Sequence record: CP054387.1
Source: Escherichia phage CMS-2020a
DNA: 64,000 nucleotides
Strand: one strand, 5' to 3'
Both the position numbers and the translations under genes were made by a program. Below are positions 31,161 through 34,650 of this stretch, piece by piece. Position 1 is the first letter of the stretch, and each line of letters opens with the position of its first letter. The notes beneath the pieces are model-generated. The model searched no databases, was not told the origin of the DNA, and saw only the letters and a program-made list of their open reading frames with translations.

Positions 31161-31261
31161 TTCAACTACTCCAAAACAAGTTGTTTTCTTATGTGGCTTA
31201 TTATCTCAATCAACAAAAGGTAGAAAACAAATTGTTTTAGGGATTGTGTAAATCAGGAGGG

Positions 31262-31289
31262 ATTGTGTCTATATGAAAATGCCCGGCGT
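31262..31289 (-). terminator. rho-independent terminator after metG
   Basis: Hairpin GCCCGGCAACACGCCGGGC followed by ATTTTCAT on the minus strand, 33 nt after the metG stop. Confidence 0.6.
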
Positions 31290-31321
31290 GTTGCCGGGCA
31301 TTGCGAAGAGAGGTTGTTTAA

Positions 31322-33355
31322 TTACTTAACCTGGTGGCCAGGTTTAGCACCAGCATCCGGGCTTAACAGGAAGATATCTTTCCCGCCAGGACCGGCAGCC
31401 ATCACCATGCCTTCAGAGATACCGAAGCGCATTTTACGTGGTGCCAGGTTAGCCACCATAATGGTGTGACGACCAATCAGTGCCTGTGGATCTGGATAAG
31501 CGGAACGGATGCCTGAGAAGACATTACGCTTTTCACCACCGAGATCCAGCGTCAGGCGAAGCAGTTTGTCAGAACCTTCGACAAACTCCGCGTTTTCAAT
31601 CAGCGCCACACGCAGGTCAACTTTGGCGAAGTCGTCAAAGGTGATGGTTTCCTGAATCGGTTCGTCAGCCAGTGGGCCAGTTACCGGTGCAGCTGTGGCT
31701 TTCACTTCTTCTTTGGATGCTTCCACCAGTGCTTCCACCTGTTTCATATCGATACGGTTATACAGTGCCTTGAACGGATTCACTTTATGGCCCAGAAGCG
31801 GTTGCTGGATACCATCCCAGGTCAGTTCTGTATTCAGGAATGCTTCTGCACGTTCAGTCAGTTTCGGCAGTACCGGTTTCAGGTACGTCATCAGCACGCG
31901 GAACAGGTTAATGCCCATAGAGCAAATCGCCTGCAGATCTGCATCGCGACCTTCCTGCTTCGCCACCACCCACGGAGCCTGTTCATCGACATAGCGATTA
32001 GCCAGGTCAGCCAATGCCATGATTTCACGGATAGCTTTACCAAATTCGCGGCTTTCCCATGCTTCGCCAATCACTTCAGCGGCATCAGTAAAGGTTTTGT
32101 ACAGTTGCGGGTCAGCCAGTTCGCTTGTCAGCACGCCGTCAAAACGCTTGTTGATAAAGCCTGCATTACGGGAGGCCAGGTTAACCACTTTGTTCACGAT
32201 ATCGGCATTCACGCGCTGAACGAAATCTTCCAGGTTGAGATCGATATCATCAATGCGCGAAGAGAGTTTCGCAGTGTAGTAGTAACGCAGGCTGTCAGCG
32301 TCAAAATGATTCAGCCAGGTGCTGGCTTTAATAAAGGTGCCGCGAGACTTGGACATCTTCGCGCCGTTCACCGTCACATAGCCGTGAACAAACAGGTTGG
32401 TCGGCTTGCGGAAGTTGCTGCCTTCCAGCATGGCAGGCCAGAACAGACTGTGGAAGTAAACGATATCTTTGCCGATGAAGTGGTACAGCTCGGCGGTGGA
32501 GTCTTTCTTCCAGTATTCGTCGAAGCTTACGCTGTCGCCGCGCTTGTCGCACAGATTCTTGAAAGAACCCATGTAGCCAATCGGCGCGTCCAGCCAGACG
32601 TAGAAATATTTGCCCGGCGCGTTCGGAATTTCAAAACCGAAGTAAGGGGCGTCGCGGGAGATATCCCACTGTTGCAGGCCAGATTCAAACCACTCCTGCA
32701 TTTTATTTGCCACCTGCTCCTGCAACGCACCGCTGCGGGTCCATGCCTGCAACATTTCGCTGAAAGAGGGCAGATCAAAGAAGAAGTGTTCAGAATCACG
32801 CATTACCGGCGTAGCGCCAGAAACCACCGATTTCGGCTCGATCAGTTCAGTCGGGCTGTAGGTCGCGCCGCAGACTTCGCAGTTATCGCCGTATTGATCC
32901 GGGGATTTACATTTCGGGCAGGTGCCTTTTACAAAACGGTCCGGCAGGAACATGCATTTTTCCGGATCGTACAGCTGTGAGATGGTGCGGTTTTTAATAA
33001 AACCGTTTTCTTTCAGGCGAGAGTAGATAAGCTCGGACAACTGACGGTTCTCTTCGCTGTGCGTCGAGTGATAGTTGTCATAGCTGATGTTAAAGCCTGC
33101 GAAATCAGTCTGATGTTCCTGACTCATTTCGCCAATCATCTGTTCCGGTGTGATACCAAGCTGCTGTGCTTTCAGCATGATTGGCGTACCGTGGGCATCG
33201 TCGGCACAGATGAAATTAACCTCGTGGCCGCGCATTCGCTGGTAACGAACCCAGACATCAGCCTGGATGTGCTCCAGCATATGGCCGAGGTGGATTGAGC
33301 CGTTAGCGTACGGCAGCGCGCACGTCACCAGAATTTTCTTCGCGACTTGGGTCAT
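31322..33355 (-). CDS. metG: methionyl-tRNA synthetase
   Basis: 677 codons from [25 protein letters not shown] (HIGH-type motif) through KMSKS to the C-terminal tRNA-binding domain ending GHQVK; matches enterobacterial MetG as recalled; ORF-track start 33484 is an upstream extension. Confidence 0.9.
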
Positions 33356-33512
33356 AGTAGGCATTACTTCTTTGTAGTGAAAAGGGGCTTGATAGTAACA
33401 AAATGGCCTTATGTCTGCCATGTGATAACAGCATTTCTCATAAATGATTAAATGTCGTAGCTGGAGTACACTACAAGGCGACAATTGCGCAAATTAAAAT
33501 AAAGGAGACGGG
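33356..33512. promoter_or_regulatory. divergent metG/apbC promoter region
   Basis: 157-bp intergenic spacer between divergently oriented metG and apbC starts. Confidence 0.5.
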
Positions 33513-34613
33513 ATGAGCGAGTCCAAATCGCCGGATGCCCTGAGAGCAATGGTAGCCGGTACGCTGGCTAATTTTCAGCACCCAACCCTGAAACACAACT
33601 TGACTACGCTTAAAGCGTTACACCATGTTGCGTTGATGGATGACACACTGCATGTCGAACTAATCATGCCTTTCGTGTGGAATAAGCCTTTTGAAGACCT
33701 GAAAGAGCAATGTAGTGGTGATCTGCTCCGTATCACTGGCGCAAAGGCTATTGACTGGAAGCTGTCGTACAACATTGCCACGCTTAAGCGCGTCAAAAAC
33801 CAACCAGGCATTAATGGCGTTAAGAACATTATCGCCGTCAGCTCAGGCAAGGGCGGCGTGGGTAAATCCTCCACAGCAGTAAACTTGGCACTGGCTTTGG
33901 CTGCTGAAGGTGCGAAAGTTGGTATTTTGGATGCCGATATCTATGGTCCATCAATTCCAACCATGCTGGGCGCGGAAAACCAACGTCCAACCTCACCGGA
34001 CGGTACTCACATGGCACCTATCATGTCTCATGGCCTGGCAACCAACTCTATTGGTTATCTGGTCACCGATGACAATGCAATGGTGTGGCGTGGACCGATG
34101 GCGAGCAAGGCGCTGATGCAGATGTTGCAGGAAACACTGTGGCCTGATCTGGACTATCTCGTTCTCGATATGCCACCGGGCACTGGTGATATTCAATTGA
34201 CGCTGGCGCAGAACATTCCTGTAACTGGTGCGGTTGTGGTAACTACGCCGCAAGACATCGCGCTGATCGATGCGAAGAAAGGCATTGTGATGTTCGAAAA
34301 AGTCGAAGTGCCGGTACTGGGTATCGTTGAAAACATGAGTGTGCATATTTGCAGTAACTGCGGTCATCACGAGCCAATTTTTGGCACCGGTGGAGCACAG
34401 AAACTGGCCGAGAAATACAACACGCAGTTGTTAGGCCAAATGCCACTTCATATCTCTCTTCGTGAAGATCTGGATAACGGAACACCAACCGTTATTAGTC
34501 GTCCAGATAGCGAATTTACGGCTATTTATCGTGACCTCGCAGATCGCGTTGCTGCCCAAATGTATTGGCAAGGTGAAGTAATACCTGGCGAAATCGCATT
34601 CCGCGCAGTGTGA
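33513..34613 (+). CDS. apbC: Fe-S cluster carrier ATPase ApbC/Mrp
   Basis: 366 aa, Walker A SGKGGVGKS, CSNCG Fe-S ligand motif, divergent from metG as in enterobacterial chromosomes. Confidence 0.85.
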   Translation: MSESKSPDALRAMVAGTLANFQHPTLKHNLTTLKALHHVALMDDTLHVELIMPFVWNKPFEDLKEQCSGDLLRITGAKAIDWKLSYNIATLKRVKNQPGINGVKNIIAVSSGKGGVGKSSTAVNLALALAAEGAKVGILDADIYGPSIPTMLGAENQRPTSPDGTHMAPIMSHGLATNSIGYLVTDDNAMVWRGPMASKALMQMLQETLWPDLDYLVLDMPPGTGDIQLTLAQNIPVTGAVVVTTPQDIALIDAKKGIVMFEKVEVPVLGIVENMSVHICSNCGHHEPIFGTGGAQKLAEKYNTQLLGQMPLHISLREDLDNGTPTVISRPDSEFTAIYRDLADRVAAQMYWQGEVIPGEIAFRAV

Positions 34614-34638
34614 TAAAAAGGCGGTGCATTGCACCGCC
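34611..34638 (-). terminator. hairpin terminator between apbC and the UmuD'-like gene
   Basis: GGCGGTGCAATGCACCGCC followed by TTTTTA on the minus strand; also directly follows the apbC stop on the plus strand. Confidence 0.5.
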
Positions 34639-34650
34639 TAATCAGTTCTC

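Follow-up and report, generated by a model that had tools for sequence, protein, structure and literature searches.

We analysed 64,000 nucleotides (nt) of the sequence record CP054387.1, from Escherichia phage CMS-2020a (this whole stretch is hereafter called the window), in which metG, encoding methionyl-tRNA synthetase (MetRS), and apbC, also known as mrp and encoding an iron-sulphur (Fe-S) cluster carrier, lie among phage genes. The explanation that best accounts for the observations, and that we consider probable, is that this metG-apbC block is a long-resident cargo ("moron") of a phage-plasmid of the SSU5 supergroup: old, maintained by selection, with a metG partly converted by host alleles, and adding MetRS to the cell. 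The element and its metG cargo are already known, and phage-plasmid metG has been published as a factor in antimicrobial survival. The present analysis adds indications that the cargo is old and not a recent accident, that apbC and metG are of discordant ancestry, that metG has repeatedly recombined with host alleles and that cargo is exchanged at a conserved intergenic motif; ApbC, even more strictly conserved than MetRS, merits experimental attention.

The block is carried by an SSU5-like phage-plasmid

The left flank of the block (29800-31260) matches SSU5 and 861 plasmids of approximately 105-115 kb, and its homologues occur at approximately 70% identity on plasmids of Klebsiella, Enterobacter, Salmonella and Cronobacter. 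The gene order held in common with SSU5 and its plasmid relatives comprises a helicase, a regulator, small genes and a DUF4942 methyltransferase. Within the window, genes for a tape measure protein (1527 amino acids, aa), a portal protein and a large terminase lie to the left of the block, and genes for ribonucleotide reductase, thymidylate synthase and SbcCD lie to the right. Plasmid replication and partition functions were not located within the window; relatives were typed in PLSDB as IncFIB and non-mobilizable. The original prediction, made from the sequence alone, had described phage-type genes around metG-apbC, had assigned both flanks to a single element and had interpreted the locus as chromosomal-type DNA carried by a phage-plasmid. 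All three points were borne out. By these sequence criteria, the window is assigned to the Escherichia/Shigella clade of SSU5-supergroup phage-plasmids, which includes the pWPMR2, p09EL50, pLF82 (= Cyrano) and pSLy3 types.

At 31000-35000, the window matches a 108-kb plasmid of Shigella sonnei (LR213459.1) at 100% identity. The 4-kb metG-apbC region is also 99% identical to p09EL50, a 109-kb plasmid of E. coli O104:H4 2009EL-2050, and 95-98% identical to the phage records Cyrano (= pLF82), CMS-2020a and PhiR41_1 (n=3). Over 25 kb (20001-45000), the best match is p09EL50 (99.4%), with S. sonnei plasmids at 98.4% and 95% coverage. The block is therefore of the S. sonnei plasmid type, and its 25-kb surroundings are nearer to p09EL50, a combination that suggests recombination between sister phage-plasmids. 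The element in the window appears to be a close relative or recombinant of pWPMR2, not necessarily pWPMR2 itself.

Both genes are intact and under purifying selection

A full-length metG of 677 codons and a divergent apbC beside it had been predicted, and both were confirmed as intact open reading frames (Table 1). The MetRS matches the NCBIfam equivalog NF001100 over residues 4-677 of 677 (1018 bits, cut-off 587). It contains the HLGH (residues 21-24) and KMSKS (333-337) motifs, the zinc-knuckle CPKC/CEVC (approximately 146-162) and the C-terminal tRNA-binding and dimerisation domain (PF01588 at 581-674; TIGR00399, 163.7 bits vs 116.65). ApbC, of 366 codons on the plus strand, matches NF008669 over residues 2-366 (759 bits, cut-off 348), and both the deviant Walker A motif GKGGVGKS and the CxxC cluster-binding motif CSNC are present in the translation; its N-terminus is three residues shorter than that of the E. 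coli protein. The description of the locus as host-type fits metG, which is 95% identical to the E. coli K-12 gene at the nt level, but not apbC, for which the figure is 82%.

The metG allele of the window is identical to that of S. sonnei. Its product differs from K-12 MetRS at 7 of 677 residues (G134C, S319T, A410T, V442I, R538K, A554T and D565E). Three of these replacements, G134C, A410T and D565E, are private, in that they do not occur in the three other plasmid alleles compared (p09EL50, Cyrano and pSLy3). G134 is invariant in 64 chromosomal MetRS orthologues, and D565E sits four residues ahead of ETIT569-572, whose deletion in MetRS increases persisters 100- to 1000-fold (PMC11004401).

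The ratio of nonsynonymous to synonymous substitution rates (dN/dS) of metG is approximately 0.02 against chromosomes and 0.05-0.08 among plasmid alleles. Together with the approximately 99% identity to the E. coli enzyme, the former value suggests that the MetRS is active in aminoacylation. The ApbC protein is the same in the window, p09EL50, Cyrano and pSLy3, whose genes differ by 9-29 synonymous and no nonsynonymous substitutions, and it was found at an identity of at least 99% in 189 plasmids. This strong purifying selection, together with the invariance of ApbC across plasmid alleles, argues that both genes are maintained for function on the element.

The predicted 157-bp divergent gap between the two genes was also recovered. 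Its metG-proximal part, of approximately 47-63 nt, is conserved with chromosomes and contains an extended -10-like element, TGnTACTAT; the remainder has diverged. Because this part is conserved, metG is likely expressed from its native promoter at plasmid copy number. A segment of approximately 25 nt, found also in Citrobacter werkmanii but in neither Escherichia nor Salmonella, makes up most of the extra length of this spacer over the chromosomal one of 131 bp. The metG terminator hairpin, which had likewise been predicted, lies approximately 20 nt past the metG stop codon. A second hairpin lies between the stop codons of apbC and humD, the right-hand neighbour, and its minus-strand U-run makes it terminator-like for the convergent humD; the related plasmid pTB212 has a different hairpin there. 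Both hairpins of the block were absent from all 84 non-plasmid loci, and an exact search of 86 loci matched plasmid copies only. No tRNA genes or Rfam matches were found within the window, so a tRNA-Met partner is lacking, as is any known riboswitch or leader.

Possible roles of the plasmid-borne pair

On the reading that we prefer, the block would be a complete second divergent enterobacterial metG-apbC locus, furnished with its own terminators and a portion of its own control region, in a variable, leftward-transcribed region where cassettes would be swapped at intergenic AAACAA-N-TTGTTT modules. Its metG would have been partly overwritten through recombination with Escherichia chromosomal alleles. 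Transcription from the conserved native promoter at plasmid copy number (5.5 per cell in Cyrano, for which virions have been demonstrated; PMC9928086) would then supplement the host's MetRS with variant subunits. The reported survival effect could plausibly arise if such subunits act dominantly within the dimeric enzyme, or through noise as the copy number varies. According to the summary of Tam et al. 2024 in PMC12452169, metG of the phage-plasmid pWPMR2 in S. sonnei mediates antimicrobial survival, and its expression leads to a sub-population of antibiotic-surviving cells, predisposed to third-generation cephalosporin resistance. SSU5-group elements, including the pWPMR2 type, are found in 18% of UK S. 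sonnei (bioRxiv 10.1101/2025.09.12.675607).

Alternatively, MetRS, and perhaps ApbC, may serve the element itself, with the antibiotic survival of the host as a by-product; we consider this unlikely. During lytic growth, the proteins could sustain the initiation of translation or the maturation of Fe-S enzymes; they could also buffer attacks on translation by the host or by a competitor. The element does carry other host-like metabolic genes (ribonucleotide reductase and thymidylate synthase), and very large phages encode aminoacyl-tRNA synthetases; Microcystis phage MaAM05 and uncultured 630-kb phages gave distant MetRS matches. Moreover, the complete conservation of ApbC suggests a need that extends beyond MetRS dosage. 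However, the lack of tRNA genes in the window, the retention of a host-type control sequence and the position of the block outside any phage operon all count against this reading, as does the attribution of a host survival phenotype to the block in the published work, as it is summarised.

The chance that the block is a neutral passenger, inert and without a function that selection maintains on the element, appears very small. Relatives without it, such as SSU5 and pTB212, do remain viable elements, but a dN/dS of approximately 0.02 in both genes, 29 synonymous and no nonsynonymous differences between the apbC genes of the window and Cyrano, and the integrity of every catalytic motif are hard to reconcile with neutrality. 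Furthermore, a backbone marker (the DUF4942 gene) was detected at 247 plasmid places in the E. coli genome set and the block at 219, so that approximately 88% of the marker-detectable E. coli SSU5-like plasmids carry it.

Smaller still is the chance that the plasmid MetRS is a drug-insensitive replacement, resisting a MetRS inhibitor as the isoleucyl-tRNA synthetases (IleRS) MupA and MupB resist mupirocin. Plasmid-borne alternative synthetases are a known route to resistance, and MupA and MupB are among the distant NCBIfam matches of the protein, but it scores as a standard equivalog and, with 7 replacements in 677 residues, is approximately 99% identical to the sensitive host enzyme. To our knowledge, MetRS inhibitors are not used clinically against enterobacteria, which also counts against this reading.

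The cargo is old, and its two genes differ in ancestry

A blastn comparison with the K-12 chromosome detected homology in 31321-34609 only, that is, in the two coding regions and the spacer (88.9% overall). The 5' half of metG is 97.6% identical to K-12, while its 3' half is 91-93% identical to Escherichia and 85% to Citrobacter. By comparison, apbC is approximately 82% identical to every sampled Escherichia species and to C. werkmanii, against 89-93% among the Escherichia species themselves, and the intergenic region is 64-71% identical to all chromosomes sampled, against 81-98% among Escherichia species. The divergence of apbC is almost wholly synonymous: against K-12, the synonymous rate (dS) is 1.7, the nonsynonymous rate (dN) is 0.029 and dN/dS is 0.017, and dS ranges from 1.4 to 1.7 across the sampled chromosomes. 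In neighbour-joining trees of apbC, an Escherichia clade without the plasmid alleles received 100% bootstrap support (91% on codon positions 1+2), whereas in trees of metG segments the same clade received only 0-4%, and the plasmid alleles fell inside Escherichia. Judged from these comparisons, the lineage that gave rise to apbC and the intergenic region lies outside all the Escherichia species sampled.

Codon composition was also assessed through the GC content at third positions (GC3). It is 0.51 in apbC vs 0.62 in the chromosomal gene, the element's other genes ranging from 0.39 to 0.59, and this shift implies amelioration towards the composition of the element; in metG, GC3 is still host-like (0.61 vs 0.63). 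Between the window and Cyrano, dS is 0.12-0.14 in the block and 0.04-0.10 in backbone genes, which implies that the block is no younger than the separation of these two plasmids. Among plasmid alleles in general, the dS of the block (0.04-0.14) is similar to or above that of backbone genes. It is also carried by pSLy3, the reference of another subgroup. The block was thus in place before the plasmids carrying it split into separate lineages.

The original prediction had suggested a recent capture of about 3.4 kb of chromosomal DNA. Illegitimate recombination or faulty packaging, for example, could have brought in a piece of the present host's chromosome. The two genes do have the order and orientation of the chromosomal locus, the promoter segment next to metG matches as well, and E. 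coli alleles are 98-100% identical to the central part of metG. Nevertheless, we consider such a capture extremely improbable. Near-identity to host DNA across the whole insert, its non-coding flanks included, is not there: apbC and the spacer are diverged from every sampled chromosome to the extent given above, and both terminators are missing from 84/84 non-plasmid loci. In addition, apbC and the metG 3' half form a plasmid clade of their own, and diverged plasmid lineages have the block in common. Codon composition, which had been proposed as a check on recency, has drifted in apbC (metG remaining host-like) and leads to the same result. For E. coli and Shigella, a recent capture can be taken as already refuted on these sequence grounds.

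metG is a mosaic that probably exchanges sequence with host copies

Mismatches between the window and K-12 metG are clustered (maximum chi-square of 42.4, reached in 0 of 200 permutations), and a 344-nt tract without mismatches (Table 1) is likely a gene-conversion patch. Among 20,395 E. coli records, the best match to 32236-33135 is a chromosome (98.7%), and no plasmid or chromosome reaches 99%; for 31486-32085, plasmids match at 95-99.8% and the best chromosome at 94.1%. The plasmid alleles are monophyletic in metG nt 1143-2031 (100% bootstrap) but not in nt 427-1142 (0%). Compared with p09EL50, the window allele has 22 synonymous and 4 nonsynonymous differences in the 5' half, and 0 and 2, respectively, in the 3' half. 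By all indications, metG is a mosaic, in which the 3' half belongs to a plasmid-specific lineage nested in Escherichia and the middle contains E. coli-type tracts. The simplest reading of this pattern would be repeated gene conversion between the plasmid metG and that of the host chromosome; the divergence of apbC probably prevents its participation.

The chromosomal metG of E. coli is itself unusually polymorphic for a core gene, chiefly in its 3' half. Of its 2034 sites, 75 differ between K-12 and Nissle 1917, and 36, all of them past nt 800, between K-12 and strain 23CRST032. Some Nissle-type patches are nearer to the plasmid alleles than K-12 is, so metG exchange may run both ways.

These observations would also accommodate a broader interpretation, which we offer tentatively and consider less likely than not. 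The block may be a module evolving at two speeds, in which apbC and the control region are a relic predating the Escherichia radiation, while metG is in continuing exchange with the host, the multicopy phage-plasmid acting as a reservoir and shuttle of metG variants. The fact that the ApbC protein is held unchanged would imply that it is needed by the element in addition to MetRS. If this were so, persistence-prone variants, such as the G134C/A410T/D565E allele, could be shuttled by the element, and the exchange could feed the high polymorphism of the chromosomal metG 3' half in E. coli.

Several points weigh against the preferred reading of an old, selected cargo that adds MetRS to the host. 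A consensus scan of the 157-bp region did not yield a convincing sigma-70 site. The position of plasmid apbC as sister to Escherichia is weak, with 46% bootstrap on codon positions 1+2. Its donor was not found: in a search of genome contigs with ApbC, which returned 80 loci, none of them a named representative of E. fergusonii, E. marmotae or E. ruysiae, no chromosome exceeded 95% aa or 83% nt identity. Lastly, persistence alleles are known to act through a lower Met-tRNA supply or reduced homocysteine editing (PMC11004401); these published alleles reduce MetRS function, and an increase in persistence from extra, near-wild-type MetRS does not follow from that.

The cargo slot and a conserved intergenic motif at mosaic boundaries

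Relatives lacking the insert, whose comparison had been proposed, were found in pTB212 and pGS04EC-1. In both, a 0.9-kb cassette encoding a DUF4145 protein lies between the same flanks, formed by the DUF5983 gene to its left and by humD to its right. The sequence shared between the window and pTB212 stops at 31251 and resumes at approximately 34645-34651. The neighbours of the block are different in pSLy3, whose similarity to the window begins exactly at the palindrome at 31174 and, on the right side, resumes at 40256 with the start of another motif module, which in pSLy3 comes approximately 190 nt after the block. SSU5 has unrelated cargo in the region, including ydfZ, LprI and an HD phosphohydrolase. 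Both proposed junctions were thereby confirmed to within approximately 15 nt. The left one had been placed inside a motif copy; relative to pTB212, it actually falls at approximately 31251, 12-14 nt to the right of that motif, whereas relative to pSLy3 the boundary does coincide with a motif copy, albeit another one (31174). In the search for a donor, blastn-short with the junction sequences gave no matches. As a separate observation, a type I restriction-modification system lies a few kb beyond the DUF4145 gene of pTB212.

The motif family, AAACAA-N-TTGTTT, had been predicted on both flanks and was confirmed there, with 14 matches in the window at no more than one mismatch vs 0.56 expected from shuffles. 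SSU5-like loci contain 3-7 copies each and the 81 chromosomal loci none. Its usual place is ahead of leftward genes, 13-15 nt before their start codons and immediately 5' of the Shine-Dalgarno sequence. An extended 23-nt form occurs four times (27356, 31215, 35153 and 40273) vs 0 expected, and all four elements sit downstream of a terminator-like hairpin. The hairpin of the GGCCAC...GTGGCC type that had been noted after the copies at 35153 and 40273 is present. It is missing at the left junction, as also noted, but the metG terminator hairpin is a functional replacement for it there. The coincidence of mosaic boundaries with conserved intergenic modules points to these modules as seams of cassette exchange; they are likely a recombination seam, and the motif itself could be an operator or a translational control site.

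The block, with the same junctions, was detected in 219 plasmids from 218 of 5,426 complete E. coli genomes, and with the same flanks in 194 PLSDB plasmids and three phage records. An assembly chimera of chromosomal and phage contigs, originally raised as an alternative, has no support besides the unexpected gene content and is refuted for practical purposes, its probability being negligible, by the recurrence of identical junctions in more than 200 complete plasmids assembled independently and in the three phage records, Cyrano/pLF82 among them, and by the presence of other cargo in exactly the same slot of related elements.

Neighbouring genes and other features of the element

The immediate neighbours of the block differ in their distribution. 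Homologues of the DUF5983-type gene are present in pTB212, p09EL50 and Cyrano, while humD is shared with pTB212 (90%) and absent in pSLy3 and SSU5.

Farther to the left, approximately 1.5 kb (29100-30640) lack an annotated gene in the relatives, yet SSU5-like plasmids from Escherichia, Salmonella, Klebsiella, Enterobacter and Cronobacter conserve them at approximately 70% nt identity. G and T strongly predominate on the strand here (GC skew +0.22, AT skew -0.20), and degenerate iteron-like repeats with the core TGGGTAATGGC start at approximately 29902, 29990, 30103 and 30245. This region may be an origin or a centromere-like site. Low-GC islands were observed at 21000-25000 (0.33-0.42), 43000-44000 (0.37) and 49000-50000 (0.38), against a window mean of approximately 0.46; the first overlaps small genes and a homologue of a transcriptional regulator (23515-24039). 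They may be separately acquired cargo. A CRISPR (clustered regularly interspaced short palindromic repeats) array in the chromosome of E. coli AST85 (NZ_AP043644.1) contains a 33-nt, 100% match to 42471-42503, within the DUF4942 gene (41493-43178), which suggests past CRISPR targeting of this phage-plasmid family.

Table 1. Coordinates of the metG-apbC block, its neighbours and associated sequence elements (window positions unless a plasmid locus is named)
Feature	Position	Strand	Details
metG-apbC cargo block	31252-34645		~3.4 kb; blastn boundaries vs pTB212 at 31251 and 34651
metG, methionyl-tRNA synthetase, 677 aa	31322-33355	-	2034 nt, 677 codons + stop, ATG start; NF001100
344-nt tract, metG nt 427-770	32586-32929	-	Zero mismatches to E. 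coli K-12 metG
metG terminator hairpin	31278-31302	-	10-bp GC-rich stem, then UUUUCAUAU; -19.1 kcal/mol, z = -5.6
Divergent control region	33356-33512		157 bp between metG and apbC
apbC (mrp), Fe-S cluster carrier P-loop NTPase, 366 aa	33513-34613	+	NF008669
Hairpin between apbC and humD stops	34619-34639		Part of the cargo block
DUF5983-type small gene	30861-31160	-	Left backbone neighbour; Pfam PF19419, 47.5 bits
humD, UmuD-like S24 peptidase	34651-35040	-	Right neighbour; NF051876, 218.7 bits vs cut-off 120
AAACAA-N-TTGTTT copies	16386, 16411, 26601, 27366, 28268, 28753, 30288, 31174, 31225, 35163, 40283, 44826, 45555, 55773		
Palindromic motif AAACAAGTTGTTT	31174-31186		14 nt upstream of the start of the 30861-31160 gene; left boundary vs pSLy3
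Extended 23-nt motif AAAAGGTAGAAAACAAATTGTTT	31215-31237		Identical to the copy at 35153-35175
Extended motif + GGCCAC...GTGGCC terminator-like hairpin	35153-35198	-	
Extended motif + GGCCAC-type hairpin module	40256-40315	-	
DUF4145 protein (PF13643), 247 aa	pTB212 locus 9384-10127; pGS04EC-1 locus 7605-8348	+	In the metG-apbC slot of relatives

Comparison with known systems

Approximately 4% of complete E. coli genomes hold a temperate phage-plasmid with a second copy of an essential translation enzyme. Mutations in MetRS are classic routes to antibiotic tolerance. With such an element, tolerance or persistence gains a horizontally transmissible, multicopy genetic basis, linked to lineages that evolve drug resistance, a point already made in the published work on pWPMR2 as it is summarised.

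Other virus-encoded MetRSs exist in jumbo and mega-phages (Microcystis phage MaAM05 and the uncultured 630-kb phages), but they are 24-29% identical to the one described here. Those phages are lytic giants whose synthetases usually accompany tRNA arrays, whereas the present gene is host-like and sits on a 108-kb temperate phage-plasmid, with no tRNA genes in the window. Two further records with an apparent phage metG were rejected as independent captures: "Acinetobacter phage MD-2021a" (CAKLQF020000011.1) appears to be bacterial chromosomal DNA, its metG adjoining mrp among the housekeeping genes dcd, pfs and emrB, and UNVERIFIED "Pseudomonas phage Y5" (OQ572407.1) is an unannotated record, presumed to be chromosomal as well. 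The protein homologue search was uninformative for ApbC, given that clustering at 90% merges plasmid and chromosomal copies.

MupA and MupB likewise are second synthetases on mobile elements that affect the outcome of antibiotic treatment. They are, however, highly diverged and inhibitor-insensitive, while the MetRS of the window is approximately 99% identical to the host enzyme and its reported effect is on survival or persistence, not through target replacement. The block also resembles phage morons, such as ydfZ/LprI in SSU5 and the DUF4145 gene in pTB212, in being a self-contained cassette with its own signals in a variable slot. It differs from them in its content, an essential housekeeping pair and not a typical virulence, defence or exclusion gene, and in that it keeps recombining with the host copy.

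With the chromosomal metG-mrp (apbC) locus of E. coli (b2114/b2113), the block shares the same two genes in divergent order, the conserved metG-proximal segment and full-length proteins. The plasmid spacer is largely unrelated and of 157 bp instead of 131 bp, the terminators differ, and the neighbours are phage genes instead of yehE and yehF.

The closest known system is that of the pWPMR2-type phage-plasmids (Tam, De Silva et al. 2024, doi 10.1101/2024.10.27.24316207, cited in PMC12452169 and bioRxiv 10.1101/2025.09.12.675607), which, as described in the citing papers, have the same backbone, metG and location. As in that type, the window contains a second metG on an SSU5-like phage-plasmid, distinct from the chromosomal gene: it is 100% identical to the S. 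sonnei copy and 95% identical to K-12. A second synthetase copy on a mobile element, considered unusual in the original prediction, is fairly so called, but it is no longer new, since the S. sonnei pWPMR2 metG has already been described and tested experimentally.

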